DNA of 64,000 bases from Candidatus Aegiribacteria sp. MLS_C (GTDB lineage Bacteria > Fermentibacterota > Fermentibacteria > Fermentibacterales > JCC-6). Of this stretch, positions 468-40,152 are shown piece after piece; within the stretch, counting starts at the first letter, position 1; every line of letters begins with the position of its first letter. Made by a program: the position numbers and the translations under genes. Below the pieces are notes generated by a model that was not told the origin of the DNA, ran no database searches, and worked only from the letters and a program-made list of their open reading frames with translations. The stretch lies in assembly GCA_002030045.1 (NCBI GenBank), contig LQBI01000031.1, positions 94,854 to 158,853 on the forward strand, written 5' to 3'.

Positions 468-919
468 TGAGGATCGCCATAGCCAGCGATCACGCCGGAT
501 TCCGGCTCAAGGAGCACCTGGCGGAATGGCTCCGGGGGAGGGATGCCCTGGTCCTCGAGGACCTGGGCCCTTCGGACGACTGCTCCGTCGATTATCCTGA
601 TTTCGCCGGAGCCCTCTGCAGGAGCCTCCTCGCGGGATCCGCCGATATCGGCATCCTGATATGCAATTCCGGCATCGGTATGAGCATCAGCGCCAACCGG
701 TACAGGGGCATAAGGGCCGCCCTCTGTCTTTATCCGGACATGGCCTTCTGGGCCAGGCACCACAACGACGCCAACGTCCTGGTACTGGGAGGAGGCATGA
801 CGGCTCCCTTCCTGGCAAGGGAGATAGTGAAGGTCTTCCTGACCGAGGAGTTCGACGGTGGACGGCACGGGAGAAGGGTCGGCAAGATGGACTCTCTGCC
901 CGGCGTGCAGGGATCCTGA
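467..919 (+). CDS. rpiB: ribose-5-phosphate isomerase B
   Basis: ATG at 467 overlaps the upstream stop (TGATG). N-terminus MRIAIASDHAGFRLKEHL… with CNSGIGMSISANR is the RpiB/LacAB signature; length ~150 aa. Confidence 0.85.
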   Translation: MRIAIASDHAGFRLKEHLAEWLRGRDALVLEDLGPSDDCSVDYPDFAGALCRSLLAGSADIGILICNSGIGMSISANRYRGIRAALCLYPDMAFWARHHNDANVLVLGGGMTAPFLAREIVKVFLTEEFDGGRHGRRVGKMDSLPGVQGS

Positions 920-33243: not shown

Positions 33244-35655
33244 CTACCTGCAGACTATCACCCTGCCGGTGTGGATACCGCCGGCCGGGTCCGCGGAGCG
33301 GATCATGTACACGCCCTGAGGCACTACGGAGCTGTCCCAGGTGATGGTGTGCTGACCCGCGGCCAGCGGGCCGGAATGGATTGTGGCCACCATCCTGCCC
33401 GCGGTGTCGTAGACGGACATGCTGAAGTCACCGGTGGCGGAGAGCGAGACCGGTATGGAGAGCAGTCCCGACACCGGGTTCGGCCATGGCGTGCCAACCG
33501 AGGTGACCATGGCGCCGGGTCCCTCACCGGTTCCCATGCCGTTGATGACGCCCTCCGCGGGCAGGCAGTTGTGGGCGGTGACCATCCAGAGGATGTCGTT
33601 CAGACCACCGATGGGATCGAAGGTCAGGGTGACGCAGCCGGTGGAATCGGTGACGCCGCTGGCCCAGAGGCTGTCGTGGTAGAGGCAGACGAGGGCGTTG
33701 TTCACCGGCGCCCTGGACAGGTCCACGTAGAAAGCTGCCTCGGTGGATCCCACGGGCAAAGTGTAGGGTGGAACCACGGAGAGTTCCATCGGTACCTCCG
33801 TCCTCATGTCCATGGTCGGGTCGCCGAACCAGTGGAAGAGGTCGTAGGTCGTCTCTGCGTACCACTCCCAGCTTCCATAGGGGTTGAAGGGAGCCGCCAC
33901 GTACATCTCCATCTTGGCGGTGGTGAGGGCCTGGCCCGCCAGGTAGTTGCCGGTGGGGTCGGTGTAGAGGGCCGGAGGTGTCGTGTACTGGTCGACGAAG
34001 GATTTGTGGTGTCCGTAGGTAAGGTAGTCGTTGAAGTAGCTGTAGCTTGAGGCAGTGGCGGCAAAGACCCCTACGGCGCCGCCCTCCATCCTGAAGAAGT
34101 TCTCGGCGAAGCAGTCGCCGGAGAACTGACCCGTGAGGCAGTTGGTGCTCATGACCATGGGGGTCATGTCGCCGTTGCTCAGGCTCGACAGGTTGCTGGT
34201 GTAGAACGGGGGATCGGCCCATCCGCTGATGGACCCGTGGTCGCGGTGCTGCACCAGGAACACCCCGCCGTTGATGGCGTCGGTGATGCCCGCGGCGTTG
34301 CCGTCCCAGACTATGTCTCCGGGTACCATCTGTCCGGCGCTGGGAAGGTCGCTCCTGTAATAGTAGGGGGGCGACTGGGAGGTGTCCTTCACGTACTCGC
34401 GCTGGACCTCCTTGCCGTAGATGTTCATGTAGGTGTCGCGGACGGTTTCCAGCGTGAAGCAGAACCAGCGGGTGGCGACGGTTCCCCCGTTTGCCTGCAG
34501 CATTCCGGCGGTGAGGACGTGTCCCCAGAAGTCCGGGTCCATGAGGGGATCGAACTGCCACTTGAGTATCTTGGCCTCGACTATGGGATAATGGCTGGTC
34601 GGCGTGACGAAGCGGCTGTGGAAGATGTCCGGGAAGTAATCGGAACCGTCGACGCAGACGTACCTGTTGTCGCTGTAGCACCCGGTGGGGGCGCTGTAGC
34701 TTGTGAGGTCCCCCTGGTCGCCCACGAAGAGGACGAAGCTGGGAGGTATTACCCAGTTGTCGTAGGCGTCCTTGATGTAGTTGTAGATCTCGGTCTGGGA
34801 CCAGCTGCCGGCGGCCACGACGGCGGTGAGGTAGCCCTGCCTCATCTTGGCCTCGATGAAGGCGTCCATCATGGTGTCCACGAAGTCGTCGCCTGCTATG
34901 ATGAGCAGGTCGGCGGCGGTTATGTCCCTGGCCTGCCTTATGTTCGAAGCCCTTATCGCCTCTCCGGAAGGTATATGGATCGAGGAAGCGGCTTCTCCCA
35001 GTATGCTGGAATTGACAAGGGTCCTGTAGGTATTGCGGAAGAACCTGCTCAGAAGCCTGGGATCCACCTGCACGGAGCCTCCCAGGTCAACCGTCACTCG
35101 AAGCCTCGGGTGAACGGTCATTACCTGTGTGGCTGCATTCCAGCTGAAGGGAAGGACGGTGAAGCGTCCGATGTTGACACCCCTCATGACGCCGGCTTCC
35201 TCGAAGGCCGCGTCCTGCCGGGGATAGTTTCCCTGAGCGTACATCTCAGGAAGGTAGGTGAAGGGTACCGGGTCGTAGGAGTTGTCCGACGGAATCGGCT
35301 GCATCGGCGAAGGGGAGAACCCTTCCAGCACCACCGGTTCGCCGACGGGCTCGACGGATATCGAGACGTTCGGGGCATCCGGCAGGGCTGCCAGGAAGGA
35401 AACCTTGGGAAGCATCGGGGCGCCTTCCGTCTCGGCGTAGGGGGTCATTGAAGGTACCGAAAGCACGCTGAAGGTCTTCCCCTGCTCCGTGAAGTCGGTG
35501 TAGAAGAACCCGGGCACGGTGATGTCGACCGTGAAACCCGAAGGAGTGCATTCCACGACCTCGAGGCTGGCGTGGCCGAGGTCGGTGATTCCGAAGTCGA
35601 CCCATTCGGCCAGCGACAGGGAGGAAAGCGCTAGAAGGAGGATCAAATGTTTCAT
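33244..35655 (-). CDS. peptidase C25 (gingipain-like) with T9SS C-terminal sorting domain
   Basis: Signal peptide. Gingipain-type blocks (LLIIAGDDFVDT, VLFVGDQGDL, HRDHGS). The C-terminus SMSVYDTAGRMVATI…GVYMIRSADPAGGIHTGRVIVCR is T9SS-tail-like. Confidence 0.8.
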   Translation of the reverse strand: MKHLILLLALSSLSLAEWVDFGITDLGHASLEVVECTPSGFTVDITVPGFFYTDFTEQGKTFSVLSVPSMTPYAETEGAPMLPKVSFLAALPDAPNVSISVEPVGEPVVLEGFSPSPMQPIPSDNSYDPVPFTYLPEMYAQGNYPRQDAAFEEAGVMRGVNIGRFTVLPFSWNAATQVMTVHPRLRVTVDLGGSVQVDPRLLSRFFRNTYRTLVNSSILGEAASSIHIPSGEAIRASNIRQARDITAADLLIIAGDDFVDTMMDAFIEAKMRQGYLTAVVAAGSWSQTEIYNYIKDAYDNWVIPPSFVLFVGDQGDLTSYSAPTGCYSDNRYVCVDGSDYFPDIFHSRFVTPTSHYPIVEAKILKWQFDPLMDPDFWGHVLTAGMLQANGGTVATRWFCFTLETVRDTYMNIYGKEVQREYVKDTSQSPPYYYRSDLPSAGQMVPGDIVWDGNAAGITDAINGGVFLVQHRDHGSISGWADPPFYTSNLSSLSNGDMTPMVMSTNCLTGQFSGDCFAENFFRMEGGAVGVFAATASSYSYFNDYLTYGHHKSFVDQYTTPPALYTDPTGNYLAGQALTTAKMEMYVAAPFNPYGSWEWYAETTYDLFHWFGDPTMDMRTEVPMELSVVPPYTLPVGSTEAAFYVDLSRAPVNNALVCLYHDSLWASGVTDSTGCVTLTFDPIGGLNDILWMVTAHNCLPAEGVINGMGTGEGPGAMVTSVGTPWPNPVSGLLSIPVSLSATGDFSMSVYDTAGRMVATIHSGPLAAGQHTITWDSSVVPQGVYMIRSADPAGGIHTGRVIVCR

Positions 35656-35985
35656 CTTGCTCCTTAACGTTCTTGGTGTGTGTTCCCAACCGGTATAGAA
35701 GGAGTGTACGGGGCTGACGGTTACCGTTTTCGTCAGGATTATAAGAGACTGCCGGGGTGAGGTAAAGTAAGATATTGCGAGTCAATCATATACAGTTATA
35801 CAAATGTTTTTTCGAATCTTACAGTAATAGAACACGTTTGAATGTTATGAATACATTTGATAAGGATTAAAACATGCTGTTTATACCCTCTATCATGAAT
35901 GAGGAATTTAGAATGGCTATTAGCATTATTATTAGTAAAATTTTATATTATCAGTGAAAATGTTCTCGAAGTATCTTCCAGGGCA

Positions 35986-36016
35986 TTGACCGCACCGGGA
36001 CACTTGTCGAATATTC
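35986..36016 (+). promoter_or_regulatory. candidate sigma70-like promoter (TTGACC-N18-AATATT) for the leader upstream of the homocysteine cluster
   Basis: TTGACC at 35986-35991 and AATATT at 36010-36015, in the AT-rich island. Confidence 0.25.
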
Positions 36017-36026
36017 CCGGCTGATC

Positions 36027-36163
36027 GGAGGAGCAGTGATGATACCAAACGCAACATGGAACTCCCGAATGATAATGCCCCGGCCCCGTCAGGGCGCTGC
36101 CGGGTAGACGCTCCTCCACACCTCCGCTGAAACCCCGCAGCCTCTCTGCGGGGCTTTTTCGTT
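36027..36163 (+). promoter_or_regulatory. candidate leader or attenuator: 22-codon leader ORF (36039-36107) whose GGAGGAGC RBS can pair with GCTCCTCC (36110-36117), followed by an intrinsic terminator (36133-36163)
   Basis: GGAGGAGC and its exact complement GCTCCTCC lie 76 nt apart. A nested CCCGGC…GCCGGG helix sits inside. The terminator ccccgcag-cctctc-ctgcgggg plus ctttttcgttt lies 40 nt before the UPF0280 start. Confidence 0.4.
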
Positions 36164-36201
36164 TCCGGGAAGAAGTTTTAACGGGATGAGCGGAGGTAGC
36201 G

Positions 36202-36939
36202 ATGTATACCCACAGGTTCTACAGGACCTGGGTCTCCCACGGAGACCTCTGCAGGTTCAGGATAGTAAGGCACGAAAGCGATCTGCACATTGCAGCGGAC
36301 TGCGATCTCTCCATGGCGGCCTGCGATGCCCTCCACAGGGTCCGCAGGGAACTGGAGGGCTACGCAGACGGCAATGAAGCCTTCCTCCATTCCCTGGTAC
36401 CGGTTACGGTCCCGCCGTCGGCTCCTGAGGTGGCGGTGAGAATGGCTGAAGCGTCCTCCCTCTGGGGAGTGGGACCCATGGCCTCGGTGGCGGGTGCGGT
36501 CGCCGAGAGCGTGGGCCGGGCGCTGGAGGAATGGACGGATACGGTGATAGTGGAGAACGGCGGGGACATCTTCGCGAGGAGCGCCGGGACATTGAATTTC
36601 GTCCTCTACGCCGGGGAGGACTCCCCGTTCAGCGGCAGGATAGGTTTCCGTATCCACGCCCCGGACGGGAAGGGCGTCTGCACCTCTTCTGGCACGGTGG
36701 GCCATTCCCTCTCCTTCGGAAGGGCCGGAGCAGTCACAGTGGTTGCAGGGGACTGCGCCGAGGCCGACGCAGCCGCCACGGCCATAGCCAACATGATATC
36801 AGCCCCCGGGGATCTCGAGGAAACCCTGGAAAGGGTCAGTCTGAGGGGAAGCGTCGAAGGCGTGGTGGCCTGCTGCGGCAGGTCCATCGTCTCCAGGGGG
36901 GTAAGGCTTCTGCCGGTGGAGGGAAGGGAGGGGGCATGA
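36202..36939 (+). CDS. UPF0280-family protein, first gene of the DUF39/NIL-ferredoxin homocysteine-biosynthesis cluster
   Basis: 245 aa; resembles archaeal UPF0280 proteins by recollection, and sits immediately upstream of the NIL-ferredoxin and COG1900 genes. The stop overlaps the next ATG (ATGA). Confidence 0.55.
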   Translation: MYTHRFYRTWVSHGDLCRFRIVRHESDLHIAADCDLSMAACDALHRVRRELEGYADGNEAFLHSLVPVTVPPSAPEVAVRMAEASSLWGVGPMASVAGAVAESVGRALEEWTDTVIVENGGDIFARSAGTLNFVLYAGEDSPFSGRIGFRIHAPDGKGVCTSSGTVGHSLSFGRAGAVTVVAGDCAEADAAATAIANMISAPGDLEETLERVSLRGSVEGVVACCGRSIVSRGVRLLPVEGREGA

Positions 36940-37373
36940 CGGTTTCCATCAGCGTGCTGCTGAGCTTCCCCGGGGAATGCGTCGGCGAACCGGTGATATC
37001 CGGTCTTGTGCGGGAGTGCGGTCTCGAGGTGAACATCCTCCACGCACGCATAAGTCCCAGCGAGGAGGGAAGGATGCTGGCCAGGCTGGAGGGGACGGAG
37101 GATCTGATGGAAAGGGGCTTGGACTACCTTTCCCGACGGGGGGTCGGAGTAACCGTTCCGGGAACCGGCTTCATCTGGGACGAGGATCTCTGCGTGCACT
37201 GCGGAGCCTGTGCCGGCATCTGCCCCGGGGGGGCGTTCACCGTCGATCACGACACTCTCCTGGTTTCCTTCGATATGTCCGGCTGCATCCTGTGCGGGCT
37301 CTGCATGGAGGTCTGCTACTACGGGGCCGTCCAGTCGGTGGAGGATCACATGAAAGGAGGAAGCGGGAAATGA
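36936..37373 (+). CDS. NIL-domain protein fused to a 2x[4Fe-4S] ferredoxin (MA1822-like)
   Basis: NIL-like N-terminus (…GEPVISGLVRECGLEVNILHARI…GRMLARLEG) and CVHCGACAGICP…CILCGLCMEVC. Confidence 0.75.
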   Translation: MTVSISVLLSFPGECVGEPVISGLVRECGLEVNILHARISPSEEGRMLARLEGTEDLMERGLDYLSRRGVGVTVPGTGFIWDEDLCVHCGACAGICPGGAFTVDHDTLLVSFDMSGCILCGLCMEVCYYGAVQSVEDHMKGGSGK

Positions 37374-38509
37374 TGAGGAGCTGGGAGGGAATAAACGAGA
37401 GGATCGACTCGGGAAGGGTAACAGTGGTCACAGCGGAGGAGATGACGGAGATGTCCGCCTCCATTGGGGTTGCAGAGGCCTTCAGGAGAGTGGACGTCGT
37501 TACCACCGGCACATTCTCCCCCATGTGCTCCAGCGGTGTCCTTCTCAACACTGGACACCATTCACCGCGGCTCAATTACCGGAGGGCCTGGCTGAACGGT
37601 GTGCCCGCCTACTCGGGTCTGGCCGCCGTGGACCTGTACGTCGGCGCTACGGCCCGAAGGGAGTCCGGGGACCGTGGAGAGGGCGGAGAATACGGGGGAG
37701 GCCATCTGATCGAGGACCTGGTCGCGGGAAGGCAGGTGAGGCTGACCGCGGAAGGCCACGGCACCGACTGCTATCCGGGAAGGGCCGTTGAGAAGATCAT
37801 CGGCCTTCAGGAGCTGAGGGACGCGTTCCTGGTCAACCCGAGGAACTGCTACCAGAACTACAACGTGGCGGTGAACCGCTCGAAGGAGAGGACCGTCCAC
37901 ACATACATGGGACCCCTGCTGCCGGACATGAGGAACGCCTCGTACAGCAGCGCCGGCCAGCTGTCGCCGCTGATGAACGATCCGGAGTACAGGACCATCG
38001 GAATAGGCTCCAGGGTGTTCCTGGGAGGAGGCATCGGGTACGTATCCTTCAGGGGAACGCAGCACGATCCATCGGTACGGAGGACCGAGGGCGGAATACC
38101 GGAGGGAGGCGCCGGAACACTGTTCCTCACCGGGGATCTCAAAGGGATGTCCCGCGAGTTCCTAAGAGGAGTTAGAATACCAGGTTACGGTGTATCCCTT
38201 GCCGTGGGAGTAGGGACCGCCATACCTCTCCTGGACGAGGAGATGGCCCGCTGCGCAAGCGTGTCGGACAGGGAGATACCGGCCCCCGTGGTGGACTACT
38301 CCGGCGACTACCCGGAAATGAACGGGCGTATAGTGGGAACCACGGACTACGCGGCACTCAGGTCCGGCGAGATATCGCTCCTGAACAGGAGGGTAAGGAC
38401 GGTGCCCCTCTCCAGCTACCCGATGGCGAGAAGGATCGCGCTTAAGCTCCGCAGCATGGTGGAGCAAGGGCTCTTCAGGCTCTGCAGACCCTCGGCGCCG
38501 CTGGAATAG
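37370..38509 (+). CDS. COG1900/DUF39 homocysteine-biosynthesis enzyme (MA1821-like, sulfide-dependent)
   Basis: AGGAGG RBS; ATGATG start overlaps the NIL-ferredoxin stop. 379 aa; DUF39 is seen next to NIL-ferredoxin as in methanogens. Confidence 0.75.
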   Translation: MMRSWEGINERIDSGRVTVVTAEEMTEMSASIGVAEAFRRVDVVTTGTFSPMCSSGVLLNTGHHSPRLNYRRAWLNGVPAYSGLAAVDLYVGATARRESGDRGEGGEYGGGHLIEDLVAGRQVRLTAEGHGTDCYPGRAVEKIIGLQELRDAFLVNPRNCYQNYNVAVNRSKERTVHTYMGPLLPDMRNASYSSAGQLSPLMNDPEYRTIGIGSRVFLGGGIGYVSFRGTQHDPSVRRTEGGIPEGGAGTLFLTGDLKGMSREFLRGVRIPGYGVSLAVGVGTAIPLLDEEMARCASVSDREIPAPVVDYSGDYPEMNGRIVGTTDYAALRSGEISLLNRRVRTVPLSSYPMARRIALKLRSMVEQGLFRLCRPSAPLE

Positions 38510-38589: not shown

Positions 38590-40152
38590 ATGAAGAATTA
38601 CGTTTGCGCCCTTGCGGCTGCCGTTATGCTGGTCGTCTCGTGCGGGACCGGAGTCGTGGCTCCCGGAAACGAGATGAGGTGTTCGCTCCCGGAGAAGACA
38701 CATACGCTTTCCGACGCCTGGCATGATGGGGAGAGCATCCTCCTCTCCCTCGGGATGCCCATGGCCATGGACGTCTATACGGAGGCCCACGGAATATCCG
38801 GCAGCGGCATAATGGTCATCGACGTCAGGAGCCACGATTTCGACCCGATTGCAGCGGTCATCGACGGACAGGGGAGCCTTGTGGCCCTGTGCGATGACTG
38901 GAAGGACAGCAGCAACGCCAGAATAGTCCTGAACGGTGCCCCTTCGGGAGGCCGGCTGCTTGTCTTCTCACCGGATGATTCCCGGGGGCTGTATGACGTG
39001 GTTGTGAGGGAAGGAACACAGCAGGACCTGGAAGCCTTCTCAGGCGCCATGGACCTCTCCTCCGGCCAGGTGAGAGGATGGATGGAGGCCGGTTCCTACA
39101 ACCCGGTCCTGGAGACCGTCCTCAGGGAGAGCCTGGAGCAGAACGTCTACAACTACAACTATTCCCAGGCCCAGCTCTTCCCGTTCTCGCTGGACGGGGA
39201 GGAACTGGTGTCCCTGAGCCTGGAGTCAGTCGAGTTCGACACCTACCTGGTGCTGGTGTCAGTAGAGGATGGTTCCTACGGTTTCGTGGCATACAACGAC
39301 GATTACAGCGGGTCCGACTCCCGGATCATCAGCAGCCTGGAGGCCGGGGACTACCTGGCCGTGGTGATGCCCTACGCGACTGGCGAAACGGGGGAGTTCG
39401 CACTTCGACTGGAGAAGATGGACAGCGGTGCCCTTGAGGCATCCGGTGTGGATGCCGGCGAGCAGGGCGTCGAATACTCGGGCATGATTCGGGAAGACGC
39501 CAGCCTGGCGCTGGCCTGGTGGCCGGACATGGCGGACAGCTGGGAGGTGCCGTCCTTCCTCGATCCCTTCAGCCCGGTCGCCGGTTTCACTTTTACGGTC
39601 CATGAACCTTCGGTCTACAGCCTGGAGGCCCGGGGGGAAATCGACGTCTGCCTGACCCTGCTGAGGGAACAGGACGGGTACATGGAACTTGCGGGCTCAA
39701 ACGACGACAACATCGACATGGGAACCGACTCGAGGATAACGGGTCCCCTGGTACCCGGCGAGTACACGGCACTGGTTTCGGCCTACAGCGGCGGCGAAGG
39801 AGGCCCGGTGACCTTCTCATGGCGGATGGAGGACTCGATTATCGAATCCCTCACACCGGGAAGGCCGGTGGATGCTTACGCCCCCTACGAGACCCCCAGT
39901 CTCATCTACAGTCTGGAGGCCGTTCCCGGAAGGACCTATTCGATCTCCGTCGAGAGCGTCGATCTCGACCCGGTGACGACCCTTTACCTGCCCGACGGCC
40001 AGAGCATGTACGACGACGACGGAGGGGAGGGGACCAACTCCCTCCTCACGTTCACTCCCGCACCCGCTCAGGCGGGTACATGCTTCCTTGTGGTGGAGAA
40101 GTACTCGGAAGGCACCGGGACCTTCAGCATACTGCTGGAGCAGCAGAGGTAG
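38590..40152 (+). CDS. lipoprotein with tandem PPC (pre-peptidase C-terminal)-like beta-sandwich domains
   Basis: Lipobox VVSCGTG. Repeated units of the type DTYLVLVSVEDGSYGFVAYNDDYSGSDSRI…GDYLAVVMPYATGETGEFALRL. Confidence 0.6.
   Translation: MKNYVCALAAAVMLVVSCGTGVVAPGNEMRCSLPEKTHTLSDAWHDGESILLSLGMPMAMDVYTEAHGISGSGIMVIDVRSHDFDPIAAVIDGQGSLVALCDDWKDSSNARIVLNGAPSGGRLLVFSPDDSRGLYDVVVREGTQQDLEAFSGAMDLSSGQVRGWMEAGSYNPVLETVLRESLEQNVYNYNYSQAQLFPFSLDGEELVSLSLESVEFDTYLVLVSVEDGSYGFVAYNDDYSGSDSRIISSLEAGDYLAVVMPYATGETGEFALRLEKMDSGALEASGVDAGEQGVEYSGMIREDASLALAWWPDMADSWEVPSFLDPFSPVAGFTFTVHEPSVYSLEARGEIDVCLTLLREQDGYMELAGSNDDNIDMGTDSRITGPLVPGEYTALVSAYSGGEGGPVTFSWRMEDSIIESLTPGRPVDAYAPYETPSLIYSLEAVPGRTYSISVESVDLDPVTTLYLPDGQSMYDDDGGEGTNSLLTFTPAPAQAGTCFLVVEKYSEGTGTFSILLEQQR

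Follow-up and report, generated by a model that had tools for sequence, protein, structure and literature searches.

A probable leader-peptide attenuator with methionine control codons precedes a homocysteine operon in Fermentibacterota

We describe a conserved RNA leader that lies directly upstream of the homocysteine operon of Candidatus Aegiribacteria sp. MLS_C. As judged from its sequence, this element is probably a ribosome-mediated (leader-peptide) transcription attenuator that would sense methionine through two Met codons and would be backed by a helix that hides a Shine-Dalgarno (SD) sequence. The mechanism is a known one and the family is new; we found no description of methionine specificity in the literature searched. 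Throughout, positions are those of the window, a stretch of 64,000 nt from contig LQBI01000031.1. The features of the leader and the operon are as follows.

35986..36015, forward strand: sigma-70-type promoter from a consensus scan (-35 TTGACC at 35986-91, N18, -10 AATATT at 36010-15)
36027..36034, forward strand: SD1, the SD of the leader ORF, GGAGGAGC
36039..36107, forward strand: leader ORF, 22 codons plus TAG (36105-07), with its ATG at 36039, MIPNATWNSRMIMPRPRQGAAG
36069..36077, forward strand: control codons ATG-ATA-ATG (Met11, Ile12, Met13)
36076..36087, forward strand: segment 1, UGCCCCGGCCCC, which can pair with segment 2 or segment 4
36092..36106, forward strand: segment 2, GGGCGCUGCCGGGUA, which can pair with segment 1 (GNNA loop 36088-91) or segment 3 (antiterminator)
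36110..36117, forward strand: anti-SD1, GCUCCUCC (GCTCCTCC at the DNA level), the exact complement of SD1
36120..36128, forward strand: anti-SD2, ACCUCCGCU, which can pair with 36189-36197
36132..36141, forward strand: segment 3, ACCCCGCAGC, the 5' arm of the terminator and the antiterminator partner of segment 2
36146..36159, forward strand: segment 4, CUGCGGGG, then C and U5 (36155-59), the 3' arm of the terminator
36189..36204, forward strand: SD2 (AGCGGAGGU, 36189-97) and the UPF0280 start ATG at 36202
36202..38509, forward strand: the regulated operon, from Pfam matches
36202-36939, forward strand: UPF0280/COG2122, family PF27030
36939-37373, forward strand: NIL and 4Fe-4S ferredoxin protein (Pfam)
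37370-38509, forward strand: DUF39/HcyBio (Pfam)

Genetic work in Desulfovibrio showed that all three proteins of the operon (UPF0280/COG2122, NIL-Fer4, and DUF39) are needed for homocysteine/methionine synthesis (PMC5764234). We found the leader unit ahead of this operon in 18 distinct loci, whose hosts are Fermentibacterota/Aegiribacteria, some unassigned metagenome contigs, and one contig with the NCBI label Planctomycetota (UPF0280 protein). The -35 and -10 boxes, the in-frame ORF, the Met-x-Met codons, the hairpins, the U-tract, and the SD of the next gene are conserved in all 18 loci, and the leader SD is conserved in 17. Every copy recovered by the collection scans precedes the same homocysteine operon, and the distance between element and operon is fixed at every locus, even where the upstream neighbor is different (L010 and L039). 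The scan pattern that recovered 10 of the relatives did not include the Met codons, and the collection scans were not conditioned on them. Within the 64-kb window the core motif has one copy versus 0.03 expected, and no further copy was found when up to 3 mismatches were allowed. Alignment A3 holds 15 leaders and alignment A4 holds 17 sequences; three loci were added later than the first 15. About 12 other scan matches were rejected as chance occurrences in GC-rich DNA, where the promoter, leader ORF, and terminator context was absent (L012-L016, L022, L024, L025, and L030-L033, mostly from high-GC genomes such as Streptomyces and Amycolatopsis). As DUF39 is typical of methanogens, we also considered an archaeal reading, with a C/D-box sRNA (GUGAUGA at 36036, CUGA at 36127) or a TATA-box promoter. 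This was rejected in view of the UPF0280 protein, which is 100% identical to that of Ca. Aegiribacteria, a bacterium, and of a T9SS sorting domain in a neighboring gene; the conserved sigma-70-type promoter and the intrinsic terminator also counter it.

An earlier note on this DNA had pointed to a promoter-like TTGACC-N18-AATATT site, and we found this site at 35986-36015 to be conserved in the relatives. In A3, TTGAC is invariant, the -10 box is [G/A]ATATT in 14 of 15 leaders and GATAAT in L026, and the spacer varies freely. TTGAC and a -10-like box are present in the three later loci as well. Transcription would start near 36022. The stretch from the terminator to the UPF0280 start is variable across the aligned loci and holds no conserved promoter. 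Therefore, the operon must be transcribed through the terminator.

The ribosome-binding site at 36027-34, the 22-codon ORF at 36039-36107, and its Met codons are as the note had described them, and the ORF is in frame in 18 of 18 loci, with lengths of 18 to 29 codons. A GGAG/GAGG-type SD lies 4 to 14 nt 5' of an in-frame start codon in 17 of the 18 loci, L026 being the one without, and GTG at 36036, in frame, is an alternative start for the leader. Across the 18 loci there was no SD-coupled ATG or GTG in another frame; the scan flagged only a TTG out of frame, shared by four closely related loci, which we regarded as spurious. The N-terminal half of the leader diverges completely, without stops or frameshifts, and the C-terminal half is near-invariant at the nucleotide level. 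All 18 leaders carry Met-x-Met, with ATA, TTA, or GCG as the middle codon, and several have extra Met codons (e.g., an N-terminal MMLMII... or Met18). The control codons, only two in number besides the start codon, encode the amino acid that is the product served by the regulated homocysteine operon. They end exactly at the start of segment 1, and the leader stop is at the 3' end of segment 2.

Several leaders differ 3' of the Met codons. The ORF of L008 ends 5 codons early (...MIMPRPR*) with the nucleotides of segment 2 kept, L036 has an Ala-to-Asp change at the bulged position 36100 (A21D), L038 has R17H, and codons 15 and 18 are free to vary among leaders. The variable nucleotides of the core are the unpaired ones, namely, the hairpin loop 36089-90 and the bulges 36095, 36100, and 36101, plus codon 15. 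Because the variable core sites are unpaired, and because of the changes in L008 and L036, we conclude that conservation 3' of the Met codons is largely at the RNA level. The divergent leader L039 keeps M-x-M-P-x-P-R and differs in segment 2 and the C-terminal tail. That this motif is conserved even in L039 suggests that the peptide itself could matter.

A strong intrinsic terminator about 40 nt before UPF0280 had also been noted, and our analysis bears this out: the hairpin CCCCGCAG/CTGCGGGG at 36133-53, followed by T5 at 36155-59, has a z-score of -3.58 (0 of 200 shuffles fold as well), and 42 nt separate the end of the T-run from the UPF0280 ATG (36202). Every locus has the invariant GGGGC followed by T4-7. 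Some relatives, the L010, L017, L020, L021 group, have a weak terminator stem (-5 to -10 kcal/mol). All 17 sequences keep the 1:4 stem by the U-tract intact, including those where 3:4 is weak.

Comparative folding upstream of the orthologous clusters revealed two mutually exclusive folds, both conserved: 1:2 with 3:4, which forms the terminator, and 1:4 with 2:3, the antiterminator. In A4 (17 sequences), 89.1% of cells are paired in the terminator fold versus 39-57% in slid controls, and 93.5% are paired in the antiterminator fold versus 42-60%. For the antiterminator fold, 0 of 500 shuffles reached either the paired percentage or the covariation score, and ten cells have double changes. By helix, 1:2 is 92-93% paired, 1:4 is 93% paired with a G:C-to-A:U double change in L038, and 2:3 (36096-36104 with 36134-36141) is 92.5% paired versus 42-53% in slid controls. 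The 2:3 pairing was predicted by RNAalifold on its own and is the minimum free energy (MFE) structure of the segment 2–3 stretch in 14 of 15 leaders. Among the 15 leaders, pair 36101:36137 is C:G in 8, A:U in 5, and something else in 2. In the clade with A:U, the G-to-U change at 36137 disrupts one pair of the terminator stem yet retains the 2:3 pair. This compensatory change favors the antiterminator. An unshifted 2:3 register, with a C·C mismatch, had no double changes and was rejected; the shifted register, with C36100 bulged, has them. Most base pairs are invariant, and the covariation consists of few events in related sequences. The nested CCCGGC/GCCGGG register of the earlier note did not survive this comparison, as 36082:36101, the pair at its center, reads G:C, A·A, or U·C among relatives, about half of which cannot form it. 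A better fit to the comparative data is the MFE register, in which 36100-01 are bulged.

Shuffles fold nearly as well as the whole leader (z -1.75 and -1.96), so the support for structure is comparative and not thermodynamic. As single sequences, the 1:2 and 2:3 helices are not set apart from GC-matched shuffles (z -1.5 and -0.1); because these z-scores are not significant and the RNA is GC-rich, we set thermodynamics aside as evidence for the two helices. When segment 1 was masked, the equilibrium MFE usually still contained the terminator. Therefore, the switch would have to be kinetic. The predicted partner of segment 2 in L039 is the spacer, not segment 3.

The RBS complement GCTCCTCC at 36110-17 and a second CCTCC at 36121-25 are present as reported earlier, and the helix proposed to sequester the RBS holds in part. 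The perfect 8-bp pairing GGAGGAGC/GCTCCTCC stands in the window and L001, to which it is limited; in most relatives the duplex is no better than composition-matched shuffles. The SD1/anti-SD1 duplex has an energy of -17.9 kcal/mol in the window versus a shuffle mean of -10.9, and the duplex of SD1 with the spacer is clearly above composition shuffles (1-2% as strong) only in the window, L001, and L017. The C+U content of the spacer is 64-86% in the loci that have an SD1; L026 has neither SD1 nor the CU-rich spacer.

The clearest covariation among the helices is found in anti-SD2:SD2, which spans the terminator. The SD2 core GGAGG is invariant, and 88.6% of cells in the helix are paired versus 39-54% in slid controls. 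Four of its pairs have double changes, its covariation score is reached by 1 of 500 shuffles, and in all 15 loci at most 7% of composition-matched shuffles fold as well as the duplex. Neither this helix nor the antiterminator pairing 36096-36104/36134-36141 was in the earlier note.

From these features we infer the following scheme of stalling, ribosome footprints, termination efficiency, second-helix logic, and methionine response. The conserved promoter would start the transcript, and a ribosome would translate the 22-codon leader. With ample Met-tRNA(Met), that ribosome would reach the stop at the 3' end of segment 2 (36105-07), and segment 2 would then be covered or re-paired with segment 1. 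Pairing 3:4 would form, and with about 42 nt left to the UPF0280 gene, the GC-rich hairpin and U5 would end transcription. Under Met scarcity, the ribosome would stall with Met11 or Met13 in the A site, covering segment 1 (36076-87), and segment 2 (36096-36104) would pair with segment 3 (36134-36141). Segment 4 would be left partnerless because segments 1 and 3 are both occupied, and RNA polymerase would read into UPF0280, NIL/ferredoxin, and DUF39, leading to homocysteine, the methionine precursor. The placement of Met13 (36075-77), segment 1 (36076-87), and the stop (36105-07) fits such stalling, with the size of the ribosome footprint taken from general knowledge. As a second layer, ACCUCCGCU (36120-28) on the UPF0280 SD would silence transcripts that leak past the terminator fold; in the antiterminated fold, 36120-28 would be trapped in the 26-nt loop of the 2:3 helix, leaving SD2 free. 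As a third feature, CUCCUCC right after the leader stop can pair with SD1 and may limit leader translation to the pioneer ribosome. Because a Met sensor depends on fMet-tRNA for initiation, super-attenuation might result when starvation is severe.

The earlier note had offered a riboswitch or a peptide-mediated attenuator, possibly unclassified, as the layout. An Rfam scan was run, and no known family explains the element. Neither the 64-kb window nor any of 16 related loci scored for a family at the gathering threshold. In a permissive scan with E values up to 10, region 35650-36300 matched sRNA, snoRNA, and miRNA families at chance level only, and no riboswitch or leader family. The covariance models for SAM/SAH riboswitches (SAM-I, II, III, IV, V, VI, SAM/SAH, and SAH) and the T-box had no match in the window or the 16 loci, and Trp_leader, His_leader, Leu_leader, Thr_leader, and Phe_leader had none either. 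We found no Met-codon attenuator in Rfam 15 or in full-text literature searches. The element is unclassified with respect to Rfam 15 and the literature searched; it is not a known RNA family, and a riboswitch is unlikely. A SAM riboswitch over methionine genes is the usual arrangement in many bacteria. In Sinorhizobium meliloti, SAM-II is reported to control metA and metZ (PMC9373788). A new class of riboswitch, in which SAM, SAH, Met, or homocysteine would stabilize 1:2 and 3:4 and the ORF would be incidental, would suit the two conserved alternative folds, the terminator before a Met-pathway operon, and the high conservation of segments 1 and 2. We nevertheless hold it to be very doubtful. 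Besides scoring no Rfam family at the gathering score and only weak, unrelated matches in the permissive scan, the element is made of two simple hairpins, with no multi-helix junction, pseudoknot, or conserved internal loop. The sole conserved single-stranded stretch, AUG-NNN-AUG, varies as codons do (the middle triplet at all three positions, the AUGs never), the SD, start, frame, and stop are kept in 17 of 18 loci, and the variable sites of a core read as codons are the spacer codon, loops, and bulges. The conserved translated ORF, the invariant Met codons, the terminator, and the conserved alternative pairings instead support the peptide-mediated attenuator.

Three other readings keep the ORF or the helices and assign them other roles. 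Control could be mainly translational, with anti-SD2:SD2 opened by leader translation or a trans factor and the terminator doing no more than stopping part of the transcripts constitutively, or marking where a small RNA or small-protein gene ends. The strong covariation of anti-SD2:SD2 agrees with this, as do the weak terminator stems of the L010, L017, L020, L021 group and L039, where, with segment 1 masked, segment 2 pairs with the anti-SD2 spacer, which would free SD2. However, it leaves the invariant Met-x-Met, the conserved 2:3 pairing and the compensatory change in it, and the invariant GGGGC-U(n) unexplained, and the 1:4 stem is intact (17 of 17) where 3:4 is weak. We consider it unlikely as the main mode of control; as a second layer it is compatible with the attenuator model. 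Quite improbable in our view is a nascent-peptide sensor, in which MxMPxPR would stall the ribosome in the exit tunnel on a small molecule (Met, SAM, or homocysteine) in place of tRNA charging, the stalled ribosome selecting between the same folds. Such an arrest peptide would resemble TnaC (tryptophan), SpeFL (ornithine), or plant CGS1 (SAM). M-x-M-P-x-P-R is indeed present in 18 of 18 leaders, including L039, and in the first 15 leaders the changes in Pro, Arg, Gly, and Ala codons are mostly synonymous (CCC/CCT, CGT/CGC/CGA, GGC/GGA/GGG, and GCC/GCA). However, these are all SSN codons; both folds pair the first and second bases, and it is the third bases, in loops or bulges, that vary, so RNA constraints could explain the synonymous pattern. 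Non-synonymous changes also occur (R17H in L038, A21D in L036, codons 15 and 18, the early stop of L008, and the tail of L039), and if a ligand stalled the ribosome over segment 1, high metabolite would switch the operon on, the wrong sign for Met or SAM. In a weaker form of arrest, the Pro codons after the Met codons may tune a kinetic stall and make two Met codons sufficient. An independent small-protein gene with no regulatory tie to the operon is scarcely credible. The conserved ORF of 18-29 codons does have its own promoter, SD, and terminator, but the lack of a conserved promoter before UPF0280 and the constant distance to a single operon (again including L010 and L039) argue against it. 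Its N-terminal half is unconstrained and its C terminus is dispensable in L008, and the conserved alternative pairing with the terminator arm would be purposeless.

The proposed attenuator resembles that of the Escherichia coli trp operon (trpL). Both have a short, SD-led leader ORF with two control codons for the end product of the pathway; four segments with 1:2, 2:3, and 3:4 alternatives; control codons at the start of segment 1 and a stop near segment 2; and a 3:4 hairpin with a U-tract just before the first structural gene. Two is also the number of control codons in the trp leader, whereas the his, leu, thr, and phe leaders have runs. The trp switch is kinetic, and in both systems equilibrium favors the terminator, so the choice must be kinetic. 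The trpL SD can likewise pair with a downstream stretch. Unlike trp, the control codons here are Met codons parted by one variable codon, the stop comes at the 3' end of segment 2 instead of between segments 1 and 2, segment 4 is a further possible partner of segment 1, and an extra covarying helix hides the first structural gene's SD. The two are alike neither in sequence nor by covariance model, and the hosts here are Fermentibacterota and a Planctomycetota-labeled MAG, not Proteobacteria.

Methionine genes are usually controlled by SAM riboswitches, Met T-boxes, or proteins such as MetJ, MetR, and SahR. Our element shares with the SAM riboswitches and Met T-boxes its place in the 5' leader of Met/homocysteine genes and its output, terminator versus antiterminator and/or SD sequestration; the proposed input differs, being the charging of tRNA(Met) read by a translating ribosome and not SAM or uncharged tRNA bound by the RNA. 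Leader-peptide attenuators are known for Trp, His, Leu, Ile/Val, Thr, and Phe, with candidates for Cys. Candidate Cys leader peptides occur in Actinobacteria, and conserved terminator hairpins were not found upstream of the cys operons of Mycobacterium (PMC1262725). The cysteine-responsive, polycysteine leaderless short ORFs of mycobacteria (bioRxiv 10.1101/834739) are similar to our element in that an amino-acid-specific leader ORF precedes sulfur amino-acid genes, and L026, which apparently lacks an SD, may be leaderless like them. They differ in having Cys runs, where our element has two Met codons together with a clear terminator/antiterminator pair. The leucine-rich attenuator peptide of Staphylococcus aureus ilv-leu (PMC5794164) and the three-hairpin attenuator of Corynebacterium glutamicum ilvBNC (PMC11857589) are reported as leader-peptide attenuators that also use hairpin alternatives outside the Proteobacteria, with a different amino acid, sequence, and phylum.

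A Met version of the attenuator would show how far the classic mechanism stretches, as the sensor itself needs methionine (fMet-tRNA) to start translation. An attenuator combined with a covarying, SD-hiding helix that spans the terminator would be a compact example of two-layer control, and the element could seed a new Rfam leader family. The leader would also provide independent support for the assignment of UPF0280/COG2122 to methionine biosynthesis. For the uncultured Fermentibacterota, it would offer the first way into the regulation of the DUF39/NIL-ferredoxin/COG2122 homocysteine pathway, itself a recent discovery.

Because the host is a bacterium, this region should be judged against sigma-70 promoters, Shine-Dalgarno (SD) sequences, and intrinsic terminators. 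We found that the promoter, SD, 22-codon leader open reading frame (ORF), CU boxes, and hairpin described in the earlier note matched the sequence base for base. The exact complementarity between 36120-28 and 36189-97 had not been part of that description. In the features listed here, SD1 and SD2 belong to the leader ORF and the UPF0280 gene, respectively, anti-SD1 and anti-SD2 are their complements, and segments 1 to 4 are RNA arms in the style of the trp attenuator.

33244-35655, minus strand: C25 peptidase with T9SS sorting domain, upstream and divergent
35986-91: promoter -35 box, TTGACC, then an 18-nt spacer
36010-15: promoter -10 box, AATATT
36027-34: SD1, GGAGGAGC
36039-36107: leader ORF, ATG at 36039, 22 codons, TAG at 36105-07, peptide MIPNATWNSRMIMPRPRQGAAG
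36076-87: segment 1
36092-36106: segment 2
36110-17: anti-SD1, GCTCCTCC
36120-28: anti-SD2, ACCTCCGCT, exact complement of AGCGGAGGT
36121-25: second box, CCTCC
36132-41: segment 3
36133-53: terminator hairpin, CCCCGCAG/CTGCGGGG, then C, then T5 at 36155-59
36146-53: segment 4, then the U-tract
36189-97: SD2, AGCGGAGGT, the SD of the 36202 gene
36202-36939: first structural ORF (UPF0280), 245 aa
36939-37373: NIL and 4Fe-4S ferredoxin gene, downstream of the UPF0280 gene
37370-38509: DUF39/HcyBio gene, downstream of the NIL/ferredoxin gene

The product of the 36202-36939 gene is a member of the UPF0280/ApbE-like family PF27030, and a Candidatus Aegiribacteria sp. MLS_C (Fermentibacterota) hypothetical protein matches it at 100% identity. 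The ferredoxin and DUF39 genes share an ATGA overlap, as they do in relatives. We rejected a 510-aa ORF (36977-38509) as a single gene; it spans the NIL/ferredoxin and DUF39/HcyBio genes, and its additional 148 N-terminal aa are an open-frame artefact of GC-rich DNA. In Desulfovibrio vulgaris, DUF39, NIL/ferredoxin, and COG2122 (= UPF0280) are each needed for homocysteine synthesis and, by that requirement, for methionine synthesis likewise (PMC5764234). Between the C25 peptidase gene and the leader promoter lies a 330-bp AT-rich gap (35656-35985; 31-37% GC versus ~62% in the flanks), which holds several promoter-like sites, including a minus-strand TTTACC-17-TATAAT (35766-35738). The pairing of C25 peptidase and leader operon is syntenic in most Fermentibacterota loci. 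Downstream, an 80-nt gap separates the DUF39 gene from one (38590-40152) whose 520-aa product has a PPC (pre-peptidase C-terminal) domain at its C terminus; most relatives have this gene in the same position.

We collected contigs with UPF0280 proteins 52-85% identical to that of the window and ran a pattern scan with GCCNNNGCCCCGNNNNGGNNCTGCNGGGTA, which spans the hairpin core and leaves the Met codons outside, once on genome contigs and once on metagenome contigs. After matches in GC-rich DNA of unrelated genomes were discarded as chance, 18 distinct leaders were left, from Aegiribacteria/Fermentibacteraceae MAGs, unassigned metagenome contigs, and one contig (L039) whose UPF0280 protein carries the NCBI label Planctomycetota. 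All 18 lie directly upstream of a UPF0280-(NIL/)Fd-DUF39 operon, even where the upstream neighbor differs (loci L010 and L039). Upstream of the L010 leader are genes for a radical SAM protein, hemerythrin, and a 145-aa ORF without a Pfam match, with no C25 peptidase there.

At 17 of the 18 loci, the conserved core is in frame with a start codon that lies 4-14 nt 3' of a GGAG/GAGG-type SD, and scanning all 18 revealed no SD-coupled ATG or GTG in other frames. An out-of-frame TTG flagged in four closely related loci was regarded as spurious. The first 9-15 codons cannot be aligned across lineages, yet they contain no stop or frameshift. Comparative evidence thus indicates that the leader ORF is translated. 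Example peptides are MKQLEYGPAHMIMPQPRQGAAG, MTTFRAGNSNMIMPLPREGAAG, MSYRWNAGHMIMPRPRKGAAG, and MMLMIISAKSCRMLMPEPRLGAAG; others are MRTGLSAGRLYMAMPAPRGGAAG (L026), MTVNPTGSYSMIMPRPHMGAAG, and MIPVHRTTRLERAPLMAMPAPRWRGRGAP (L039, 29 codons). Met-x-Met is present in every leader (18/18); its middle codon is ATA, TTA, or GCG, so that all three positions vary, and the flanking ATGs are constant. One clade has added N-terminal Met codons (MMLMII, MIMMII), and two leaders have an extra Met at codon 18. In the window the second Met codon (36075-77) adjoins segment 1. The divergent L026 leader (520-734, minus strand; also L029) has no SD and is possibly leaderless, its ATG falling ~10 nt 3' of the -10 box; its spacer folds into its own hairpin with no CUCCUCC box, and its anti-SD2 is shifted, CGUCUG pairing with CAGACG.

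We observed conservation of two alternative pairings in a 17-sequence alignment: 89.1% of cells were paired in the terminator fold (1:2 + 3:4) and 93.5% in the extended hairpin (1:4 + 2:3), versus 39-57% and 42-60%, respectively, in controls with the arms slid out of register. RNAalifold predicted the 1:4 + 2:3 fold unaided, double changes occurred in 10 of its cells, and none of 500 column shuffles did as well by either percentage of paired cells or covariation. Eight sequences have C:G at pair 36101:36137, and five have A:U; in that second clade, U in place of G at 36137 mismatches the terminator stem but preserves 2:3 pairing there. L038 changes 36088 from G to A (Arg to His) and compensates with C-to-U in segment 4, and L039 has rebuilt the 1:2 hairpin from other sequence (CCCGCG-C-CCCC/GGGG-A-CGCGGG). 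In L010 (2782-3009) the local terminator stem has decayed (-5 kcal/mol) and the long-range 1:4 stem by the U-tract is kept.

As a stand-in for a ribosome that covers segment 1 while segment 4 is still untranscribed, we folded the segment 2-to-3 stretch alone. In 14 of 15 leaders the MFE structure was the 2:3 helix, with energies of -10 to -19 kcal/mol (L026, -33); across the 15, 1:2 ranged from -14 to -19 and 3:4 from -5 to -24 kcal/mol. Single-sequence z-scores in this GC-rich RNA were significant for the terminator only (-3.58; 1:2, -1.5; 2:3, -0.1). Even when segment 1 was masked, the terminator mostly persisted in the equilibrium MFE. Therefore, the choice of fold would have to be kinetic. 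In the E. coli trp attenuator, the choice between folds is likewise kinetic.

We propose from these comparisons that the element is a trp-type attenuator that responds to the supply of Met-tRNA(Met). When Met is ample, the ribosome would translate as far as the stop codon, where segment 2 ends, and the 3:4 hairpin (or 1:4 stem) would form beside the U-tract and end transcription near 36159. With scarce Met, a stall at codon 11 or 13 would place it on segment 1; 2:3 pairing would leave segment 4 without a partner, and polymerase would enter the homocysteine operon. In the terminator fold, the anti-SD2:SD2 helix would silence leaked-through transcripts, and in the 2:3 fold anti-SD2 would be confined to a 26-nt hairpin loop. 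SD1:spacer pairing may limit leader translation to the first ribosome.

Could control be mainly translational, through the anti-SD2 helix? That helix was paired in 88.6% of cells (slid controls, 39-54%), with double changes at four pairs and a covariation score equaled by 1 of 500 shuffles, and in 15/15 leaders tested its duplex was stronger than nearly all composition-matched shuffles (<=7% fold as well). L039 (2260-2503) has a different terminator, CCCCGAGG/CCUCGGGG, and masking its segment 1 leads to predicted pairing of segment 2 with a CCUUCC spacer in place of segment 3, which hints at a more translational mode there. We consider mainly translational control unlikely; the helix fits the attenuator model as a second layer. 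The SD1:anti-SD1 helix of the earlier note reaches a perfect 8 bp only in the window (-17.9 kcal/mol) and L001 (-19.3 kcal/mol). In other leaders a CU-rich spacer is generally SD-complementary, usually no better than shuffles, and L026 has neither SD1 nor a CU-rich spacer.

A sensor based on nascent-peptide arrest would draw on MxMPxPR, which is universal among the leaders, and the nascent peptide may contribute alongside the RNA constraint. However, variable nucleotides fall in the loop (36089-90, a GNNA-type tetraloop), in bulges (36095, 36100, 36101), and in codon 15. In L008 (2858-2911; also L009), TGA at codon 18 truncates the peptide to ...MIMPRPR* but leaves the nucleotides of segment 2 in place, with TAA where the stop normally lies and a U-tract of just 4 nt; sequencing error is unlikely because the recruiting protein occurs on 5 contigs. 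L036 changes Ala to Asp at bulged 36100, and the Arg-to-His change of L038 falls in the loop. Thus, RNA pairing would suffice to explain most conservation downstream of the Met codons, and we give peptide arrest a slightly lower chance than translational control. A new riboswitch seems less probable again. The earlier suspicion of an unclassified element held up against Rfam 15, which gave no match at gathering score in the window (1-64000) or in 16 related loci (98 kb total); at E up to 10, 35650-36300 gave just matches at chance level, for which the terminator hairpin was responsible. Least credible of all is an unrelated small-protein gene; such a gene would account for a translated ORF, and every leader found precedes the same operon.

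In the literature searched, including targeted reading of the comparative attenuator surveys PMC2965389 and PMC1262725, we found no methionine leader-peptide attenuator; we therefore rated the element a new family with a mechanism of known class. [quoted passage not shown] By our rating, the Met specificity, the phyla, and the added SD-sequestering layer are new. The mechanism is textbook, and its Met-sensing version is unexpected. For uncultured bacteria, the leader gives the DUF39 pathway a regulatory link that can be tested.
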